This document shows positions 2,613 to 31,929 of a DNA stretch of 64,000 bases, in pieces. Position 1 is the stretch's first letter. Every line of letters starts with the position of its first letter. This DNA comes from Escherichia phage LHE83. The notes under the pieces were generated by a model. It worked only from the letters and a program-made list of their open reading frames with translations, made no database searches and had not been told where the DNA came from. Where the stretch lies: the sequence record OQ561750. One strand, written 5' to 3'. The translations under genes and the position numbers were made by a program.

Positions 2613-3277
2613 TAATATAATCTCTTATAGTAATATAAAGGAATCGTGCCGTTAACTGTACCACCTGCTAACGATTGGGTAGAGTTACCTAAGTATTCCC
2701 ACTTACCGTATCCAGCCCTTGGCTGTTGGACTATAGTATGGGAAATTGTACAACCCGATTGTTTATATGGTGAAAAAATATGATTCTGATAGTCATTGTA
2801 TTTAATATTCAAGGTAGATTGGTCTAAGGCATCAATAGCAGTTTCGGCCAAAATATAGCTATTAGCAATAGCGTCTAAAAACACATCATTTACTTTAGAT
2901 GCAACCAATACAGATGAATCGCCAACTAAGACCTCTACAGGAAGCCCAAACACTTTAATAATAACCGGGTCGCCAAGTTCACCGCCCGAAGAAATAGAAC
3001 CGGTAAATGTAATTTTATCAGATTGTTGGATAAATCCAGGTGCTCTGTTTTCTGTGGTAATAATAACAGAGTTCACAGGAAGCTCTGTTCTAAATGCAAT
3101 ATCATCTATTGCACTTTGGACCGTAGGAAAATAAACACCCTTCTGGGTTTGGTTTGCAGAAGGGCCACCAATAGGTCGTTGGTCAGCGACAGCAGTAGGC
3201 TTGTCACTGGTATAAGATAATTCCAAATAATCAGCTAAGCGGGATTTTAACCCGCTTTTCATTTCAGTTAAAGTCAT
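2612..3277 (-). CDS. 11: Baseplate wedge protein gp11
   Basis: 221 aa (T4 gp11 219 aa); start/stop overlap with gp10 and gp12; synteny. Confidence 0.7.
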   Translation of the reverse strand: MTLTEMKSGLKSRLADYLELSYTSDKPTAVADQRPIGGPSANQTQKGVYFPTVQSAIDDIAFRTELPVNSVIITTENRAPGFIQQSDKITFTGSISSGGELGDPVIIKVFGLPVEVLVGDSSVLVASKVNDVFLDAIANSYILAETAIDALDQSTLNIKYNDYQNHIFSPYKQSGCTISHTIVQQPRAGYGKWEYLGNSTQSLAGGTVNGTIPLYYYKRLY

Positions 3278-5088
3278 TATGCAATCCTCATCCAGCGATG
3301 AACAGTTAAGTATGGTGGTAGAGTATTAACCGGGATAGGAGTGGTTCCTTGAGCCTTATTAATACCGGCTTTATCTTCACGATATTTTGTATAAGCTGGT
3401 CCTTGTGAATCAGGGTCAACTAAACATCCACCTACAAAAATAGGGCCATCGTTATCAGCAATAAGGACTTTATCATCGGTATTAAGTTCAGGGATATTCT
3501 CATATTTCAAATTAGCCACATGAGCACCACCAGTACCACCGGCAGTTGACTGTGGAATACCAGCAGAATCCAGATCGTTATTATTTGCATTAAACAAAGA
3601 AGCCGCGTCTGGAGACCAACCTACCAAGAACACATCAGATAAACGCTTCCATGAACCAAAGCCCATATAAGTTTTAGGGTTATTAGGGTTCACCGTGTTC
3701 TCATAGATAGTTCCTATAGGGTAAATTAAATCAAAAAATGTTGCTGCTGTGTCTATTGTAATATTAGACGAGGCAACCGGCTCAACGTTAGGTGCAAAAG
3801 GATTATCTACATCAGTAATACGAACCTGGCCTGTTATATTAATAGATGGGCCTTTAGAAATATAGATGTTGTTGGTGTAATCCAAAATCTCATCAATTTC
3901 CATGGTAGTACCGATATCATTATTGTACCAAATTACTGTAAGAATATCACCATGTTCAAAGTTACGTCCAAATTCGATGGATTCAATCTTGTCTTCAGGA
4001 GTCAAATTAAAAATATAGTCTGATTTAGATTGGGTCCATTGACCACCTGCATTAAAACACTCGGTAGCAGTACGACCATCAGCACCTTCACAATAAAACG
4101 AAGGAAGTCCTGCCGTACCAGCTTGATGAAGTAATGTGCTATTCAGCATAACTTGGCAAGCATTTGGGTTGATAGGACTATTAACAGAAATATTCAAATC
4201 TGCGGCCGATATAACATGCGAAGTATTCAAATCAGCCACGAAAGAAGAACCAGGAACAGAAACGTTTTTAGTCAATTCTGAACTTTGGATTGTTATATCA
4301 CGGCGGTTATAAGAACTGCGCCATTGAGCAAGCCCGTCATTATATGATTTGATAATAACAGTATCACCTGCTTCACAAGGATATTTTAAACGGATGTCTT
4401 TACCATTCAAGGCAACCAATTCACCTGGTTGAGCACCCGGAGAACCGAACTCTGCAGTAGCCGCATCAAAAATATCATCAACACCGTAGAACAAATTGTT
4501 ACCACGTTGCGAAACGCTTAAACTTGCTACGTTATAAGAAAGCCCTGGGAAAATGTCTAGAAAATCTGTTTGGCCTTCAGTGGCAATAAACTGCTTAGTT
4601 GCTACAGTAGCGAGGTCGTTATTTGGAATACGGTTTACTTGCTTATTTTCAACGTATTCCCATCGTCCTGGGGCACAATAAACTAATTCAAGGTCCGAGA
4701 AGTTGCGAGCAATTTCTACTTGAGTAGCTGAACCCTTAATGGTATCACCCGTGGCAGGGATTAGGGTTACAGGGTTAGCTTGCCATGAGGAATACACGTC
4801 ACGTACACGGATAACAAAGTTATATTCTTCAGGAGAGCCTTTAGGAAGCTGAACGTTAATACGCCCACCTTGAGTATTAAGGGTATAGCTATGACCCATT
4901 ACGGCGTTCAACAAAGCACCATCTTCAGTAGAATGTTGTTTCCAAGCACCTGCTGCATGTGGGTTATTGCCATCGCCTAATTGGTAATAAAGCTCATTGA
5001 AGTTGTTATTAATTTTAAGACCACCTGCGCGCAGGTAATCACCGGACCCGTCATCAACAGCGGAACCTACTTTTAAGTCTTGTTTCAT
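3277..5088 (-). CDS. 10: Baseplate wedge protein gp10
   Basis: 603 aa (T4 gp10 602 aa); synteny, translational coupling to gp9 and gp11. Confidence 0.7.
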   Translation of the reverse strand: MKQDLKVGSAVDDGSGDYLRAGGLKINNNFNELYYQLGDGNNPHAAGAWKQHSTEDGALLNAVMGHSYTLNTQGGRINVQLPKGSPEEYNFVIRVRDVYSSWQANPVTLIPATGDTIKGSATQVEIARNFSDLELVYCAPGRWEYVENKQVNRIPNNDLATVATKQFIATEGQTDFLDIFPGLSYNVASLSVSQRGNNLFYGVDDIFDAATAEFGSPGAQPGELVALNGKDIRLKYPCEAGDTVIIKSYNDGLAQWRSSYNRRDITIQSSELTKNVSVPGSSFVADLNTSHVISAADLNISVNSPINPNACQVMLNSTLLHQAGTAGLPSFYCEGADGRTATECFNAGGQWTQSKSDYIFNLTPEDKIESIEFGRNFEHGDILTVIWYNNDIGTTMEIDEILDYTNNIYISKGPSINITGQVRITDVDNPFAPNVEPVASSNITIDTAATFFDLIYPIGTIYENTVNPNNPKTYMGFGSWKRLSDVFLVGWSPDAASLFNANNNDLDSAGIPQSTAGGTGGAHVANLKYENIPELNTDDKVLIADNDGPIFVGGCLVDPDSQGPAYTKYREDKAGINKAQGTTPIPVNTLPPYLTVHRWMRIA

Positions 5089-5948
5089 TATACTGGAACT
5101 CCAATAGTTTGGGTTTCTACGACCTTAATTGCAAGCCTCATAGGGTTGACAGAAGAAGCGGTCGCGATAATATAGTTTGATGTATCGAATTTAAAATCTA
5201 GAGAATAAATTTCGTCATCATCTGAAGTTTGTCCACGTTTAATAACACCGTATTCAGTGGAATAAATCTTTTTAGCTTGGTTGTCGATAAACACAAGATA
5301 TTCTGAAGCTTTGTAAATGGTTTCATTAGCATTCACTGCCGTAACTAAAAGTTTGAGCAATGAGTACTGGCCGGAATAAACCACCGGGATATCACGAGCG
5401 ACAGAAGATATATTATATGTCTTATTTAATGGAACTCGTTTATCGCCAAACATACTTTCAATTGAATAATCCCATACCGCAACGCCGTTTGTATCCGATA
5501 CACACCATAAAAGAACTCGTGTATAAGGTGTTACGATGCGCAAAGTCGAAGTTGAATGGCTTGCAAAAGTATCCAATATACGGATTTCAAGATAATTAGT
5601 GGAAGAAATACTTCCATTAGAGTTGATAATCTCGATTCCTTCACCGACTGCACCTTTTACAGTGGTTAATACGATAGAACCGGTAGAAGCATCGATATCT
5701 ACCAAGGAGCCTAAATCAACTGAACTTGCTTGGTCGGTATCACCAAATTTTTGATAGTAGCCTGTAGCGTGTAATTTCTGACCTGTTAATTCGCCGGTTA
5801 AAGCAGTTTTACGTTGGTCGCCAAAAGTATTATAGATGTTGTTTAAGTCAGTGTTCAGTTTAACACCGCCGTCATAAAGAATGTCGCCGGTGCTGGCATT
5901 ACCAATTTCACCGACGTCAATTAGTTCTTTACCAGTTTGCTTAATCAT
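5088..5948 (-). CDS. 9: Baseplate wedge / long-tail-fibre attachment protein gp9
   Basis: 286 aa (T4 gp9 288 aa); synteny. Confidence 0.7.
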   Translation of the reverse strand: MIKQTGKELIDVGEIGNASTGDILYDGGVKLNTDLNNIYNTFGDQRKTALTGELTGQKLHATGYYQKFGDTDQASSVDLGSLVDIDASTGSIVLTTVKGAVGEGIEIINSNGSISSTNYLEIRILDTFASHSTSTLRIVTPYTRVLLWCVSDTNGVAVWDYSIESMFGDKRVPLNKTYNISSVARDIPVVYSGQYSLLKLLVTAVNANETIYKASEYLVFIDNQAKKIYSTEYGVIKRGQTSDDDEIYSLDFKFDTSNYIIATASSVNPMRLAIKVVETQTIGVPV

Positions 5949-5993
5949 AGGTATGCCTCATTATTGATATACTGTATTTATTAAACCCCGAAA

Positions 5994-6007
5994 GGGCCTT
6001 GCGGCCC
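5994..6007 (-). terminator. GC hairpin (GGGCC-N4-GGCCC) followed by U-rich tract between gp8 and gp9; possible attenuator/terminator or RNA-stabilising stem
   Basis: Perfect 5-bp GC stem seen directly after gp8 stop on the minus strand; U-run is interrupted so termination efficiency is uncertain. Confidence 0.35.
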
Positions 6008-6010
6008 TTA

Positions 6011-7015
6011 TTAGAATTCGAAGATAATGTTAATTTCTTCTGTTTGGTCCATGGAACGAATAACCGGAGGACGGTTTTCCATATAAATCATTTCACCTGA
6101 ATGGCGGGAGAGGTCTATAACATCATAGTACTCTTTTTCGGCTTTAATGATCGGATCGGATGGGTGAGCTTTAGCTTCTAATGGATTAGAAATTATCGAA
6201 AGCTGTCTAAATCCTTTGTTACCAGGAAGACTAAATTCAGGGAAGTAAACTGAATCTAAGAATGCTTTAAAACGAATGGTATTGCCTTTAATACGATAAA
6301 TCAATCCATAATCGTCTTGCTGCCAAGTAAGATTATTCTCGTATCCCCAACGTTCTGGGTCTTCAGCAATTTCTTCTGGCCATGGAACCACAATATATTC
6401 ATTAGTGCAACGGTTGATACTTACATCAGGTGGAATCTCATACAAATATTCCCAGAGATAACCATCTCCTGTATCAACCATACCTTCCGTATCGCCTTGT
6501 CCTGCAGGGGCTTTAACCGACTGTACATTTGAAGTCCATTTACCACCAAGTTTAATACACTCGGTTTTATTATCAAGGGATAAAATAGAACATGTACCTG
6601 ATTCAGGAATATCTACACAACGATAAACCATCCATCCGGCGCCGACATCAGTACGGTTTTGCGGCTGGCTGTTCGCCACTACAATTTCACCAATCTGGAA
6701 AGTAAACGGGTTAGGATAAGAGGTGTCACCCCAGTCTTTGCGAGGGACAACACAATCCAGCATACTCTTATAAACCTTAACACAACCCATCATGTTGGTC
6801 CAGACGTCTTCTACGCCTTCAGAATCATCTACAGGATATGGTGGTGCAAAACCTGGGTCATTTTCGTTATCGGCCCATGGTCGGGCCCTTCCGAAAGATA
6901 CATACATAGTGTTCTGGTCTTCACCATCACCTATTGTTCTGTAAAAGTTGTACATTTTTTCCGTTCTAAATTTTGAAGTAACAATAGAACGGTAAACTAC
7001 TGTAGAATTAATCAT
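6011..7015 (-). CDS. 8: Baseplate wedge protein gp8
   Basis: 334 aa, identical in length to T4 gp8; synteny. Confidence 0.75.
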   Translation of the reverse strand: MINSTVVYRSIVTSKFRTEKMYNFYRTIGDGEDQNTMYVSFGRARPWADNENDPGFAPPYPVDDSEGVEDVWTNMMGCVKVYKSMLDCVVPRKDWGDTSYPNPFTFQIGEIVVANSQPQNRTDVGAGWMVYRCVDIPESGTCSILSLDNKTECIKLGGKWTSNVQSVKAPAGQGDTEGMVDTGDGYLWEYLYEIPPDVSINRCTNEYIVVPWPEEIAEDPERWGYENNLTWQQDDYGLIYRIKGNTIRFKAFLDSVYFPEFSLPGNKGFRQLSIISNPLEAKAHPSDPIIKAEKEYYDVIDLSRHSGEMIYMENRPPVIRSMDQTEEINIIFEF

Positions 7016-21965: not shown

Positions 21966-22039
21966 GGCCCTGTAGCTCAATGGTTAGCAGCAGTCCCCTC
22001 ATAAGGGAAAGGTTACCGGTTCAAATCCGGTCTGGGCCA
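21966..22039 (+). tRNA. tRNA with anticodon CAU (Met, or Ile2-type reading AUA as in the T4 tRNA-Ile)
   Basis: 74-nt cloverleaf: 7-bp acceptor stem (one U-U mismatch), anticodon loop CUCAUAA, T-arm ACCGG-TTCAAAT-CCGGT; position matches T4 tRNA cluster. Confidence 0.65.
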
Positions 22040-22751: not shown

Positions 22752-22826
22752 GTCCCGCTGGTGTAATGGATAGCATACGATCCTTCTAAGTTTGCGGTCC
22801 TGGTTCGATCCCAGGGCGGGATACCA
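22752..22826 (+). tRNA. tRNA-Arg (anticodon UCU), CCA encoded
   Basis: 75 nt; 7-bp acceptor stem, anticodon loop CUUCUAA, T-arm CCTGG-TTCGATC-CCAGG, 3-prime ACCA. Confidence 0.7.
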
Positions 22827-24217: not shown

Positions 24218-24248
24218 GTTTACATGGGCTCATGATTAAGATATTATG
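24218..24248 (+). promoter_or_regulatory. Early promoter candidate (GTTTAC ... TATTAT) overlapping inverted repeat GGGCTCAT/ATGAGCCC
   Basis: -35 GTTTAC seen; -10 assignment uncertain (spacing about 19). Confidence 0.4.
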
Positions 24249-25389: not shown

Positions 25390-25926
25390 ATGAGTTTATA
25401 TGACGACCTGATATCAAATATTGATTGGTTTAAAAATAGTGGTCTTTCCCATGAAACCAATTCAGTTCTTTATAGAATTCGCCAAGACCTAGGCTATTCA
25501 AACGATTTCTTAAGCAGAACATCTAGCCGTGGCGATACTACCAAATTACCTTTTATTTTTGCTTTAGCTGAAGACCTTTCTTTTGAAGATGCTTTGGAAA
25601 TTATTGACGTAAATCTGGCTATTCAACGAGTGGAATTCGCTGGGCTACGCTATTCAGTATACTCTTTAAATGAACCAAGCGATTATAAACAGCTTGTTGA
25701 TGCCGACGATGATTACCATTTAGTATGCTATTTGATGTTAGAAAATGGTGACCACTTTGGTATGGTCGACCGCCGCCCGAGTTATTCGGATATTAAAAAT
25801 TACGATAAAGATGAGCTTATTATTTTAGCCAATGAGTATACATCAGAGATTCGTAAACAACAACGTAAACTTAATCGTTTTATTACTGAATGTCGCGAAT
25901 ACGCTAAAGAGGTTCAAAATGCATAA
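25390..25926 (+). CDS. Hypothetical protein (178 aa), C-terminus FITECREYAKE
   Basis: ORF with GGAGGAGAGG SD. Confidence 0.45.
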   Translation: MSLYDDLISNIDWFKNSGLSHETNSVLYRIRQDLGYSNDFLSRTSSRGDTTKLPFIFALAEDLSFEDALEIIDVNLAIQRVEFAGLRYSVYSLNEPSDYKQLVDADDDYHLVCYLMLENGDHFGMVDRRPSYSDIKNYDKDELIILANEYTSEIRKQQRKLNRFITECREYAKEVQNA

Positions 25927-26272
25927 GCCTAGTAAAACCGACCCTGGTTACGCATTAGCAGATTATGATATAGCTATTTCCTTATTCCTCGGCATTGCTA
26001 CTAGTATGACTGCAGGGATAATTGGATTTCTTGTCGGTGGGATTATTAATGGTATGCCTCGCCATCCGTTTGAAGATATGAGCCTTGCATGGATTTGGGT
26101 TCCGGCTTTAATAGGATTTTTTATCCCATGGGTCTTTGATATTGCCCAAACTAATAAAATAAACAAGCCACGTAAAAAGAGATATGCTTTAGCTATGGCT
26201 AATTATAATGAGTATGTAAAACAAACTAAACGTAATGACCTTGAAACCTTTATTAAGGAATGTAAATCATGA
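25919..26272 (+). CDS. Membrane protein (117 aa) with C-terminal FIKECKS motif
   Basis: Two hydrophobic helices; internal ATG overlapping upstream stop. Confidence 0.45.
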   Translation: MHKPSKTDPGYALADYDIAISLFLGIATSMTAGIIGFLVGGIINGMPRHPFEDMSLAWIWVPALIGFFIPWVFDIAQTNKINKPRKKRYALAMANYNEYVKQTKRNDLETFIKECKS

Positions 26273-26559
26273 ATAAAATTGAAATCGAAATCCCGGAACA
26301 CAATGACGAGAAATCTGCAGAAAAGGCTATCTATGCTCTTCTGAATAAAGCGAATACCATCGAACATGAATGTGAAGCTATTGCCGATAAGTATGGTATC
26401 CAATTCGGTACCGGTGATTATGGTTCAGGACGTACATATTATCCTATCGGCTATGAATGCTCCCAGTGGTTTAAAGATGAAATTGAAAACAACGGCGGTG
26501 AAGTTGAAAACGGCGTCGTTACAGTTGGTGCTTGGGTCTCCTCTTCAGCAATGTGCTAA
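26269..26559 (+). CDS. Small protein, tandem paralog 1 (96 aa), C-terminus AWVSSSAMC
   Basis: ATGA overlap with upstream gene; shares IADKY and G-x-G-D-Y motifs with paralog 2. Confidence 0.5.
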   Translation: MNKIEIEIPEHNDEKSAEKAIYALLNKANTIEHECEAIADKYGIQFGTGDYGSGRTYYPIGYECSQWFKDEIENNGGEVENGVVTVGAWVSSSAMC

Positions 26560-26568
26560 GGAAACGCT

Positions 26569-26850
26569 ATGATGAATGATTGCCGTAAAAATAAAGAGCT
26601 GGCTGACGCAGTAAATGATATCCACAAAGCTATTCGTCGTGCTGAGGAAATTGCTGACAAATATGAGACTCATTTTAATATATACCCTGCTCGCGGTATG
26701 GGCGGTGACTATTATTCTCCTGGCGCCTTGAAAGCCGACCTTGCCCACTGGGAAGAATACGGTGAAGCCCAGTACGCTATTGTAAACCAGCATGATTACA
26801 CCACCAGCCTAGAAAATGGCGGTTGGGTGTCCTCTTCTTCTGAATGTTAA
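26569..26850 (+). CDS. Small protein, tandem paralog 2 (93 aa), C-terminus GWVSSSSEC
   Basis: TAAGGAAA SD; motif EEIADKYETHF...GMGGDYYSPG parallels paralog 1. Confidence 0.5.
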   Translation: MMNDCRKNKELADAVNDIHKAIRRAEEIADKYETHFNIYPARGMGGDYYSPGALKADLAHWEEYGEAQYAIVNQHDYTTSLENGGWVSSSSEC

Positions 26851-26859
26851 GGAAATAAA

Positions 26860-27072
26860 ATGACTATTGATGAAATTGAAAAACAAATCCGCGAATTAGT
26901 ACGTAAAGGCCAGGCCGTGGCTGACGAAACGGGTGAAGAGTTCCGTGTTTCTGGTCGTGGAGAATACATTTCTCCAAAGAACCCGGAATATGATGATTAC
27001 GAATGGGTCCGTGATGACTACGGTATTCCGGAAGGTGAAGGTTTCTGGTTTACATCCTCTATGTCTTGCTAA
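26860..27072 (+). CDS. Small protein, tandem paralog 3 (70 aa), C-terminus FWFTSSMSC
   Basis: TAAGGAAA SD; GRGEYISP motif. Confidence 0.5.
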   Translation: MTIDEIEKQIRELVRKGQAVADETGEEFRVSGRGEYISPKNPEYDDYEWVRDDYGIPEGEGFWFTSSMSC

Positions 27073-27083
27073 GGTGATAAAAA

Positions 27084-27308
27084 ATGTCTGATATTAATGA
27101 ATTAGAAAAAGCTGCACTTGAACTGGCTGCACTGTATAAGAAAGTAAAAGATATGGCTTCTGCTCAAAGTTTTGGTGTTGAGCTCGACGATTATGACGGT
27201 GAAGTTCGTCTCGAAGATTGGCTGAATAGCTCGTGTTATGGCGAAGAAGCTGGACGCACCTTCGTTGCTCAGGCCGATGGTAAAATCTGGTATCCGAGCT
27301 CATGCTAA
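27084..27308 (+). CDS. Small protein, tandem paralog 4 (74 aa), C-terminus IWYPSSC
   Basis: TAAGGTGA SD; divergent body, same C-terminal W-x-SS-C tail. Confidence 0.45.
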   Translation: MSDINELEKAALELAALYKKVKDMASAQSFGVELDDYDGEVRLEDWLNSSCYGEEAGRTFVAQADGKIWYPSSC

Positions 27309-27529
27309 AATTAAAGAAAAGATACATTCGTAAAATAAATGGTCTTCTCGATTATGCCAAAGGTTGGCCGTTAAGTATTATTATGGCTGATAGACACCCG
27401 CGTTATAATACTGAGATGACTTATTACAAAAAGTACGATTCATATTGTCGGTCTAAAGCAGGTCGTTTAGATGGTTCTTATGAAGACTATTTCGGTAAAA
27501 AACCTACTCGTATTTCGTTAGGAAAATAA
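27302..27529 (+). CDS. Hypothetical basic protein (75 aa)
   Basis: ORF overlapping previous stop. Confidence 0.4.
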   Translation: MLKLKKRYIRKINGLLDYAKGWPLSIIMADRHPRYNTEMTYYKKYDSYCRSKAGRLDGSYEDYFGKKPTRISLGK

Positions 27530-27559
27530 TTTAACCACATGGATGTGGTAGGAGGACTT

Positions 27560-27889
27560 ATGCATAAAGATTCAGTATTCAAATATCTTTTGAAAACAAA
27601 TAAAGAATTCTATATGAATGGACAGGCCTTCTTGTTCGTTCGTGGTAAACGTGAGATGTTTTACAAATGCGACCTCTCAATGCACCATCATATGTATCAC
27701 ACCCATGGTGAGCCTATACTGGGATTCTCTGGTGACGAGACTAGACACATAGCTATGTACTACGACCATTTTAAGCTCAATGATTGCGGTGACAACGCTC
27801 TGGTCTGGAATCCATCTTGGCGTCGTTGGGATACAGTAGACAACGATAAATTATTTTTAGAATATTGCAGAAGTGATGTACAACTCTAA
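27560..27889 (+). CDS. Hypothetical protein (109 aa) with His-rich segment HHHMYHTHGE
   Basis: Internal ATG after AGGAGG SD. Confidence 0.45.
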   Translation: MHKDSVFKYLLKTNKEFYMNGQAFLFVRGKREMFYKCDLSMHHHMYHTHGEPILGFSGDETRHIAMYYDHFKLNDCGDNALVWNPSWRRWDTVDNDKLFLEYCRSDVQL

Positions 27890-27932: not shown

Positions 27933-28172
27933 ATGTGGTATTACGCCCCGATGTCCGATAAGTCTAATGAACCGGTACGCATTACTCGTGCCAAGTTTAA
28001 AAAGATTTATGGCTTCTCTTATAAGAAGTCTGATTACGGTGTTCGTTTTGAAGATGCCCACTGTATCAATGACCCTTATGCTGAAGAAATCTCTAATGAG
28101 ATAATTCCTATCATTAAGAATAATTCTGATGATATGTGGGAATTGCATAACGATTACGTTGCTGAAATTTAA
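27933..28172 (+). CDS. Hypothetical protein (79 aa)
   Basis: ORF with GAGGAG SD. Confidence 0.45.
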   Translation: MWYYAPMSDKSNEPVRITRAKFKKIYGFSYKKSDYGVRFEDAHCINDPYAEEISNEIIPIIKNNSDDMWELHNDYVAEI

Positions 28173-28193: not shown

Positions 28194-29153
28194 ATGATGT
28201 TAGTTATTGGTTCTCGTGCACTGCACCACGCTGGTCTGATTGAAAGTAAGCATATCGAAAATTCTGATTGGGATTTCATTGCCGACCAAGGCTCATGGAA
28301 TCACTTTAAAGCTCGGATGTTTGGTGCCCATGTTCCTGTGGATAACCCTGATGTCCAGGCTTTTAAATGCATGTACAATGGTAAAGAAACCTATTTTGAA
28401 GCTTATATCGTTCGTGCCCTGACTAACGTACGAGAAATTACCGGTGAGCTTCAAGACGAAGATTTCACCTCAAGTTATCGTCTCCTGAAATATGCCGAAA
28501 ATCATATTAAAAAGGACCGTCTTACAGGTTTCTATTGGGCCACGCCTGATATCTGTCTGGCTATCAAAACCTCTCATCGTTTCCTGAAGAATAATCCGTT
28601 CTTCTTGAAAACTATGTCCCACATCAAATACCTTCGTAATAAAGGTATCACCCTGAACGAAGAACTCCAGGAAATTATGCTGCAACGTCAAAAAGAAACG
28701 TTGAGCTATTCCCACCCTAAATTGGATGTAAACAAATCATCGTTCTTTAATGATACCATTTATACCCTAGACCACGACTCTATCCATGAAGCAGTGGCAT
28801 TGGCAGGGCGCCCTGCATATACCTTTTATATGAAGGAAGGTTCTGAAGTCATGACCTCTCGTGAGAAGTTCGAGGCTTTGCCTGAAGCTATTAAACTGGC
28901 TGGTGTGTATGAAGAAACTTGTGTCCTGGCACTAGAACGTTCACAGGTTCCTAATGACTTCAATATTTCACCATCATTAAGTTTCTATATGGCCCTTGAG
29001 AAAGTGTGCACCTCAATCACTTCAGGTTGGTTCCGCACTTATGCATGGGAAAACTACCAAGCTGTGGTTAATATGTACAAGACTTTAGGTGAAAACGACT
29101 ACATTGAACGGTTTAAGCGTAACCAACATTTAATTCGTCCTTTCGAAAAATAA
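28194..29153 (+). CDS. Hypothetical protein (319 aa)
   Basis: Long ORF with GAGGAAAA SD; no recognised motif. Confidence 0.5.
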   Translation: MMLVIGSRALHHAGLIESKHIENSDWDFIADQGSWNHFKARMFGAHVPVDNPDVQAFKCMYNGKETYFEAYIVRALTNVREITGELQDEDFTSSYRLLKYAENHIKKDRLTGFYWATPDICLAIKTSHRFLKNNPFFLKTMSHIKYLRNKGITLNEELQEIMLQRQKETLSYSHPKLDVNKSSFFNDTIYTLDHDSIHEAVALAGRPAYTFYMKEGSEVMTSREKFEALPEAIKLAGVYEETCVLALERSQVPNDFNISPSLSFYMALEKVCTSITSGWFRTYAWENYQAVVNMYKTLGENDYIERFKRNQHLIRPFEK

Positions 29154-31410: not shown

Positions 31411-31418
31411 TATAAATA
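31411..31418 (+). promoter_or_regulatory. T4-type late promoter TATAAATA for e, abutting SD-sequestering hairpin CCTCC/GGAGG
   Basis: Exact TATAAATA 22 nt upstream of e ATG; 5-prime arm CCTCC (31419-31423) pairs with SD GGAGG (31432-31436). Confidence 0.6.
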
Positions 31419-31440: not shown

Positions 31441-31929
31441 ATGGATATTTTTGATATGTTACGTCAAGACGAAGGTCTTGATTTAAATCTTTATAAAGAC
31501 ACTGAAGGTTATTGGACTATTGGTATTGGCCAGTTAGTTACCAAGAACCCATCTAAAGACGTTGCTCGCGCTGAACTTGATAAGCTTATGGGTCGAGTTT
31601 GCAACGGTCGTATTACTATGGCTGAAGCTGAGCAACTCTTTAACCGATCGGTTGAAAATGCTCGTAGAGCTATTCTGCGTAATCCTAAATTGAAACCTGT
31701 TTATGATGTATTAGACGAAGTTCGTCGTTGTGCTTTAATTAACATGGTCTTCCAAATGGGTGAAGCAGGTGTAGCAGGGTTCACTAACTCTTTACGTATG
31801 CTCCAACAGAAACGTTGGGACGATGCGGCAGTTAACCTGGCTCAATCCCGTTGGTATAAACAAACTCCAAATCGTGCTAAGCGCGTGATTTCAACATTTA
31901 AAACCGGCACATGGGCTGCTTATAGATAA
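31441..31929 (+). CDS. e: Endolysin (T4 lysozyme, gene e)
   Basis: 162 aa; [30 protein letters not shown] with catalytic Glu11/Asp20/Thr26 equivalents; high similarity to T4 lysozyme along full length. Confidence 0.9.

Follow-up and report, generated by a model that had tools for sequence, protein, structure and literature searches.

We suggest that four consecutive small open reading frames (ORFs) of Escherichia phage LHE83 (sequence record OQ561750), each of which ends in Cys, encode proteins that are likely to be functional partners of a predicted nucleotidyltransferase (NTase) encoded downstream of them; it is the linkage of the genes that points to such a partnership. The window considered here is a stretch of 64,000 nt, and the region concerned is 98% identical to phage MX01 and belongs to a Dhakavirus-type T4-like coliphage. 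The array lies within 26269-27308 on the + strand, flanked by homologs of T4 e.6 and e.2, and the NTase gene stands 0.9 kb downstream on the same strand. The original prediction had described four consecutive Cys-terminal ORFs of 96, 93, 70 and 74 amino acids (aa), all of which are seen in the ORF list and in the raw sequence; its description is accurate, and what it overlooked is the conserved NTase linkage, the main functional clue. The features on which the argument turns are as follows.

ORF1: 26269-26559, + strand; 96 aa, isoelectric point (pI) 4.4, net charge -10; hairpin DYGSGRTYYP; tail GAWVSSSAMC; type 1 of the Cys-tail family.
ORF2: 26569-26850, + strand; 93 aa, pI 4.9; ARGMGGDYYSP; tail GGWVSSSSEC; type 2, nearest to the family consensus and the ORF that was modelled.
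ORF3: 26860-27072, + strand; 70 aa, pI 4.3; GRGEYISP; tail GFWFTSSMSC, its terminal Cys being its sole one; type 3.
ORF4: 27084-27308, + strand; 74 aa, pI 4.2; internal WLNSSC and terminal IWYPSSC; the divergent type 4.
NTase-like partner: 28194-29153, + strand; 319 aa; DUF7277 at residues 2-101 and DUF7275 at residues 120-305; phrog_2141.

Linkage of the array to the NTase gene

The linkage is close to obligate and is visible from both of its ends. Among small-protein loci fetched with a single protein (P0075), a DUF7277/DUF7275 gene stands just downstream on the same strand in 22 of the 22 viral loci that could be evaluated. Among loci fetched via the enzyme, 73 of 80 have one to six small ORFs upstream of the NTase, and two of the seven seemingly empty ones hold diverged small members that can be recognised by eye. 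The contigs of distant members (a jumbo phage of 378 kb, a 66-kb contig that encodes a family-A polymerase and T4-like phages among them) carry a DUF7277+DUF7275 gene of ~315 aa directly after the small genes. The small genes often directly abut or overlap the NTase gene, and in non-T4-like phages they abut it directly. In the window three small ORFs, all of unknown function, are interposed:

27302-27529, + strand, phrog_7065.
27539-27889, + strand, phrog_9796.
27933-28172, + strand, phrog_3723.

Because two of the three have no detectable DNA match in the close relatives L035 and L036, which keep both the array and the NTase, the interposed ORFs seem to have been inserted later into a module that was once contiguous, and they stand outside what is conserved of it.

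The original prediction had placed the array in a T4 hyperplastic region and regarded tandem diversifying paralogs in such a place as typical of host-interaction or anti-defence proteins. The family is not peculiar to that setting, being found also in jumbo phages, in phages of ~60-100 kb and over many host genera, and the complete T4 genome has neither the small family nor the DUF7277/75 enzyme. T4 e.3, e.4 and e.5 were rejected as diverged homologs, the whole T4 genome being without a member of either family, and T4 nrdC.11, which is annotated as a "nucleotidyltransferase", is not homologous to DUF7277/75.

The array and the NTase are probably expressed before the late genes, in an early or middle unit, a prediction made because the stretch that holds them has no late-promoter motif: there is no TATAAATA between 23245 and 31411. 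The sole late-promoter-like TATAAATA near the locus lies at 31411-31418, immediately ahead of the lysozyme (e) homolog at 31441, which agrees with a late transcript for e and a pre-late unit for the array and the NTase; σ70-like promoters lie upstream, at 24219 and 24676. This arrangement would also suit independent effectors of host takeover or anti-defence, such as acidic nucleic-acid mimics, which would be linked to the NTase simply by sharing an early operon and its transcript. That is essentially what the original prediction envisaged, and it agrees with the small size and very acidic character of the proteins (pI 4.2-4.9), with the position of the locus among accessory genes, from e.6 to e.2, and with a copy number that differs between phages. 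We nevertheless regard it as improbable. The linkage to one enzyme family holds over phage lineages that share no other synteny, which is unexpected for independent effectors; T4 lacks both genes together; selection on the small genes is purifying, not positive; and the proteins gave neither a match to PADLOC or to known anti-defence proteins nor a structural match to known DNA mimics.

We also note a few loci in which other proteins occupy the place next to the enzyme. In one phage lineage (L082, L083, L087, L105, at about 3209-3742) a protein of ~177 aa (MFKVGDRVEIAEGSRYYGQS...), with no Pfam match, is encoded directly upstream of an NTase that has Cys at position 272, and no Cys-tail ORF is detectable. 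Pseudomonas phage REC gp162 (166 aa, with a weak SH3-like match) has a similar position, between array and NTase.

The Cys-tail family

All four ORFs match one profile, phrog_899, along its C-terminal part, with E-values of 4.9e-23 (ORF1), 2.8e-20 (ORF2), 4.7e-14 (ORF3) and 1.4e-9 (ORF4), which bears out their proposed paralogy. ORF1 to ORF3 also find one another in pairwise BLASTP searches (E ~1e-5), and ORF4 is joined to them through the profile alone, matching the family profile A2 with an E-value of 2.7e-13. An exhaustive profile search returned 241 representative clusters at E<1e-3, and a word-indexed search found close relatives, all of them Cys-terminal. One match, the 1373-aa repeat protein P0048, meets the profile at positions 15-55 alone, in a low-complexity helix region, and was set aside as probably spurious.

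The tail was read in 149 distant representatives, and the statistics that follow refer to these. Cys is the last residue in 138 and the penultimate one in eight more, so that the tail is kept in 146; among the 138 Cys-terminal proteins, Trp stands at -7 in 134, Ser at -4 in 136 and Ser at -3 in 134. A single Cys is present in 94 of the representatives, the median net charge is -8, and neither a conserved His nor a conserved second Cys is found. The family consensus consists of an N-terminal helix (...EAExIADExG), the motif F.F..AYGMGGTYYP, a variable acidic and aromatic linker, and G.W.SSS..C. The helix with ...(E)xIAD..., followed by the F.F...YGxGGxYYP hairpin, is present in ORF1 to ORF3. 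ORF4 has neither the Gly-rich hairpin motif nor the two-residue spacer ahead of the Cys, and keeps the N-terminal helix and the conserved Asp. All four ORFs fit a constant unit W-x-x-S-S, which the Cys follows after two residues or, in proteins of the ORF4 type, after none. ORF4 holds this unit twice, as WLNSSC at residues 46-51 (followed by YGEE) and as WYPSSC at residues 69-74, and 35 of the 149 representatives have extra internal copies of W-x-S-S or SS.CYGE(E/D) in the acidic linker; the unit thus behaves as a short motif that can be duplicated.

Two details of the original prediction need adjustment here. It gave (A/E)IADKY as shared by the first three ORFs, which is right for ORF1 and ORF2, ORF3 having AVADET at that place. 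It also gave an internal motif G-x-G-(D/E)-Y-x-S-P, which exists, with ORF1 read in the wrong register: in the family alignment the hairpin is A-Y-G-M-G-G-T-Y-Y-P, and DYGSGRTYYP of ORF1 aligns with ARGMGGDYYSP of ORF2 and GRGEYISP of ORF3.

It appears from these alignments that the thiol of the Cys matters and that its α-carboxylate probably does not, since the variants include proteins with an extra residue after the Cys, proteins in which the Cys comes right after SS, and a representative (P0124) in which the Cys has been relocated into the strand (WVCSSSQY). A thiol-based role for the terminal Cys, of the kind that the original prediction had in mind, is plausible.

A trivial origin of the tail can be set aside. 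The Cys codon of an array ORF is directly followed by TAAGG(A/T), and the tail might have been a nucleotide-level by-product of the junction between the stop codon and the ribosome-binding site, or the ORFs might not have been genes at all. The junctions, read from the sequence, are:

Stop/Shine-Dalgarno junction before ORF2: 26557-26568, + strand, TAAGGAAACGCT.
Junction ORF2/ORF3: 26848-26859, + strand, TAAGGAAATAAA.
Junction ORF3/ORF4: 27070-27083, + strand, TAAGGTGATAAAAA.

Two of them have the TAAGGA that was first noted for all, and the third has TAAGGT. It is in the stop codon that the Shine-Dalgarno sequence begins, and the Cys codon lies outside it; the amino acids of the tail are conserved among distant phages, in 146 of the 149 representatives, whatever sequence comes next; and the ratio of non-synonymous to synonymous substitution rates (dN/dS) is far below 1 and the predicted fold confident. 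The artefact is refuted, the Cys being kept in homologs that have other downstream sequences. Terminal Cys is also uncommon in the window: Cys makes up 1.3% of the residues of the + strand ORFs, and of the 111 such ORFs of at least 60 aa, the only five that end in Cys include ORF1 to ORF4. The ORF1 start codon overlaps the stop of the upstream gene (ATGA) and the ORF4 stop overlaps the ATG of the following ORF (ATGCTAA), and the junctions of the array have the translational-coupling layout typical of T4-like early operons.

For ORF2 an AlphaFold2 model, built with an alignment of 80 sequences, predicts with confidence what seems to be a novel α/β fold (pLDDT 88.4, pTM 0.75), with a helix at residues 9-32, a hairpin at 35-49, a second helix at 51-64 and a strand at 84-88 (GGWVS). 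In the model a small sheet, with W-x-x-S-S as its third strand, packs against the long helix, and the last three residues, which bear the Cys, are flexible and are the only ones of low confidence (pLDDT ~50).

The paralogs had been supposed to be diversifying, which the substitution rates contradict. Computed against five relatives, dN/dS is 0.09-0.20 for ORF1, 0.13-0.32 for ORF2, 0.14-0.18 for ORF3 and 0.01-0.17 for ORF4, so that all four are real genes under purifying selection. Orthologs of ORF1, at 34-97% identity, are present in 47 of 80 related loci and those of ORF3 in 33 of the 80; orthologs of the ORF4 type, with xIWxPSSC, occur in other T4-like genera. For every ORF of the array, other T4-like genera have a separate ortholog at 40-68% identity, against 24-29% identity of the paralogs with one another; because each is closer to its ortholog than to its neighbours, the paralogs are old, separately maintained and sub-functionalised lineages that are variably retained. 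Such retention can be seen in the number of copies, a comparison that the original prediction had proposed and which gives one to six in related phages.

The family is catalogued yet uncharacterised, and it is restricted to phages. ORF1 to ORF4 and the NTase are members, by the scores of their hidden Markov models, of phrog_899, phrog_2141 (PHROGs v4), DUF7277 and DUF7275, entries that carry no function. Searches of Pfam, NCBIfam, PADLOC and PDB sequences with the small proteins gave nothing meaningful, designed helical proteins being matched by composition alone, in agreement with the first impression that this was not a recognisable family. A search of the available literature library for the motif, the PHROG and Pfam identifiers and phage MenT-like NTases found nothing relevant.

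Some relatives depart from the pattern. A subfamily of ~135-150 aa, with an internal ...SGSCSEWEES..., ends in (G/E)YDYGWN(I/V) or ...GWDL and not in Cys, and it stands beside canonical Cys-tail members in arrays; it was found at L119:2270-2683 (Pseudomonas phage REC gp160) and in L068, L069, L077, L079, L088, L089, L091, L092, L094 and L095. Gp91 of Stenotrophomonas phage Mendera (L125:3950-4195), an 81-aa protein encoded downstream of the NTase, has no Cys tail and carries YPYGGYGRTSYP, which recalls the type-1 hairpin DYGSGRTYYP; it may be a degenerate or relocated member of the family.

The probable partner enzyme

The NTase of the window matches DUF7277 with an E-value of 1.8e-26 and DUF7275 with one of 4.5e-77. 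Residues G6-S7, D25-x-D27 and E69, which hardly ever vary, give the GS..DxD..E signature of Pol-β NTases; with the pattern hG[GS]...D.[DE], a third acidic residue and an α/β NTase core, the ORF has the defining marks of the Pol-β superfamily, and NTase activity is predicted for it. Its AlphaFold2 model (pLDDT 92.2, pTM 0.86) gave the following fold matches, each with its score:

MenT1, 10.2.
ANT(2''), 8.7.
TglT/MenT3, 8.6.
MenT4, 7.8.
LnuA, 7.2.

The C-terminal helical domain of ~150 aa had no structural match in this fold search, and a PDB profile search of the NTase sequence against solved structures found no relationship, MenT included. At least 733 phage records and ~1,900 protein clusters contain the enzyme, which is nearly always annotated as "hypothetical" and in a few records as "nucleotidyltransferase"; among 185,579 cellular genomes there were five matches, all on contigs of metagenome-assembled genomes. 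The phages that carry it are mostly large lytic types and include T4-like coliphages, phages of Acinetobacter, Klebsiella, Aeromonas and Pseudomonas, and jumbo phages.

Certain residues of the enzyme follow the presence of the small proteins. The 110 NTases with a Cys-tail neighbour that were sampled all have Cys at position 272, and the six that lack Cys-tail partners all have Ile or Val there; R129, R165, H174, S277 and R281 are, in the same way, peculiar to the partnered clade. C243 was considered as a further residue of this kind and rejected, Tyr, Met, Leu, Thr or Ala standing there with partners present.

The NTases with Ile or Val at 272 belong to a sister group, phrog_6944, whose members are shorter (248-266 aa) and are found in phages of Gordonia, Arthrobacter, Streptomyces and Mycobacterium and in a KVP40-like Vibrio phage. 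They have no Cys-tail neighbours and adjoin one to four tandem copies of another small family (phrog_18295/8206/13591) of ~100-150 aa, with the motif GGEG..Y.VF...(H/R)F(K/R)..GYY.S(W/Y).G...EV.P. The arrays of this second family are:

L117:4100-5297.
L118:4121-5543.
L121:2692-3533.
L122:3609-4704.
L120:3735-4064 and 4522-6049.
L123:2567-2863.

Homology of this family (A6) to the Cys-tail family was rejected, the hhalign probability being 0.1%. The architecture of one NTase with a tandem array of small proteins thus appears to recur with unrelated small families.

What the small proteins may do for the enzyme

As a whole, the explanation that we find best, and which we hold tentatively and with somewhat less than even confidence, is that the small proteins are dedicated clients of the NTase and that their Ser/Cys tail reaches into the enzyme. 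The small acidic α/β proteins would bind the NTase encoded downstream of them and would deliver the flexible Ser-Ser...Cys tail to the catalytic cleft, or to a pocket around C272, H174 and R281. The tail, or else the conserved Tyr of the Gly-rich hairpin, might then be the covalent acceptor, a weakly supported step, and the NTase would nucleotidylate or otherwise load each small protein, so that one enzyme could mature several distinct effectors. That the proteins are covalent substrates rather than non-covalent regulators we take to be possible and somewhat doubtful; it is favoured by the invariant, nucleophile-rich and flexible tail, by the several individually conserved paralogs and by the recurring pattern of one enzyme with many small proteins. 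In its most specific form the proposal would describe a new kind of phage post-translational system, in which an NTase of the MenT/ANT fold loads nucleotides on the Ser-Ser...Cys tails of arrayed small acidic proteins, and so stated we consider it rather unlikely. If it were true, protein-nucleotide conjugates, for example mimics of the tRNA acceptor end or nucleotide-bearing decoys, would act on host translation or immunity, and actinophages would hold an analogous system built on an unrelated small family.

Several points weigh against these proposals. The case for binding to the NTase comes entirely from gene linkage, and no fusion of a small protein with an NTase (a Rosetta-stone protein) was found. 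Five loci and phage Mendera have an NTase with C272 and no detectable Cys-tail ORF within 3-4 kb. About two independent clades underlie the correlation at C272. As the second small family lacks the Cys tail, any chemistry shared by the two systems would need other residues. The enzymes nearest to the NTase in structure take tRNA 3' ends, aminoglycosides or lincosamides as their substrates, and not proteins. Lastly, the active site of MenT1, the best structural neighbour, is blocked and the enzyme so neutralised by a 68-aa protein encoded upstream of it (PMC10435456). This is control by a blocking small protein, not by a modified one, and it favours a regulator over a substrate.

On such a regulatory explanation the small proteins would be non-covalent subunits of the NTase, antitoxin-like or conferring specificity. 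The acidic protein would lie in an electropositive nucleic-acid groove of the enzyme and its Cys tail would plug or ligate the catalytic centre, and it would either gate a MenT-like NTase of tRNA 3' ends or aim the enzyme at its targets, one paralog for each target. The upstream position of the small genes, often abutting or overlapping the NTase gene, fits this well, as do their strong negative charge and the restriction of R129, R165 and R281 to the partnered NTase clade. So does a possible connection with tRNA: genes for tRNA lie within ~4 kb in 10 of 51 diverse NTase loci, actinophage NTases stand beside or inside tRNA clusters, and another NTase locus, L054, has seven tRNAs directly upstream, although with only 10 of 51 loci concerned such proximity is a weak hint. 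We consider the regulatory explanation somewhat unlikely. One inhibitor would be enough, and redundancy among antitoxins hardly accounts for four to six old paralogs, each conserved in its own right; a classical toxin-antitoxin pair would be of little gain to a lytic phage; and near-invariant residues over such divergence are rare in antitoxins. We note in passing that the window has a tRNA-Met(CAT) gene at 21966-22039 and a tRNA-Arg(TCT) gene at 22752-22826, 3.5-4.3 kb upstream of the array.

The chemistry of the Cys could also be an end in itself. Together, perhaps, with C272 and H174 of the NTase, the terminal Cys of each paralog might form a Zn or Fe-S site between the molecules, or serve in a disulfide relay or as a persulfide carrier; the small proteins would then be thiol "swinging arms", carriers that feed the enzyme. 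In most members the only Cys does lie at a flexible end, and shifts in the position of the thiol are tolerated where its loss is not; conservation of C272 is limited to the NTase clade with Cys-tail partners, and several paralogs could give one ligand each. Such an explanation seems to us quite improbable, given that the small proteins lack a conserved His or second Cys, that C243 of the NTase is not conserved, and that no sulfur or Fe-S accessory genes were consistently linked in the three contigs inspected. To our knowledge, Pol-β NTases have no known role in sulfur transfer, which also counts against it.

Known systems and significance

NTase-fold enzymes are known to modify small partner proteins, MntA acting on a Tyr of HepT, CitX on a Ser of CitD and GlnD on a Tyr of PII. 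In MntA-HepT, CitX-CitD/MdcG-MdcC and GlnD-PII, as in our proposal, the small and often acidic partner of a Pol-β NTase has a conserved Ser or Tyr to which a nucleotidyl or nucleotide-derived group is attached; no homology was detected between those partners and the phage small proteins, for which modification is a proposal. We know of no C-terminal Cys motif and no tandem array of paralogs among HepT, CitD/MdcC and PII partners.

The phage module resembles the MenAT1 system of M. tuberculosis in layout, with a small-protein gene upstream of the NTase gene. There is no sequence kinship for either component, the phage enzyme being DUF7277/DUF7275 and not DUF1814/AbiEii (Pfam), and the likeness is at the level of fold alone. 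The phage enzyme has in addition a C-terminal helical domain of ~150 aa, its small proteins, one to six paralogs in tandem, have a fold of another kind and an invariant Cys tail, and the module is confined to phages, most of them large and lytic. MenT enzymes extend tRNA 3' ends (PMC10435456, PMC11375011), and a Ser or Thr in their own active site accepts phosphate from the enzyme (PMC11375011), which is a precedent for the substrate explanation.

We would also make the distinction between the array and the gene clusters of ribosomally synthesised and post-translationally modified peptides (RiPPs). These are alike in that tandem small genes share a recognition or modification element, vary in the rest and adjoin one highly conserved enzyme; the phage proteins differ in being folded domains of 70-100 aa, not leader-core peptides, and no protease, transporter or immunity gene was consistently linked to them in the three contigs inspected. 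Internal head proteins of the T4 kind (IPI/IPII/IPIII) were rejected, the four ORFs having no common N-terminal leader and the family occurring in non-T4-like phages and being absent from T4. Sulfur carriers or ubiquitin-like proteins (ThiS/MoaD) were rejected as well, for want of a β-grasp fold with a C-terminal Gly-Gly, and so were the acidic DNA-mimic anti-restriction proteins Ocr, ArdA and Arn, to which the small proteins have no similarity.

Neither the widespread phage NTase nor its small partners has an assigned function or a literature that we could find. The invariant terminal Cys, the strict coupling of the genes and the recurrence of the arrangement with two unrelated small families together make for a testable hypothesis on a new phage use of nucleotidyltransferases. 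If the NTase acts on tRNA 3' ends as its structural relatives do, the module bears on the current question of attack on, and defence of, the tRNA pool by phages, and the phages that carry the enzyme include T4-like coliphages of the type used in therapy.

Neighbouring gene

A small predicted membrane protein (phrog_2330) with two hydrophobic segments is encoded at 25919-26272, and it is the end of this gene that meets the ORF1 start at ATGA. The gene diverges faster than its neighbours, with gapped alignments and a dN/dS of at most 0.66 on short aligned pieces.

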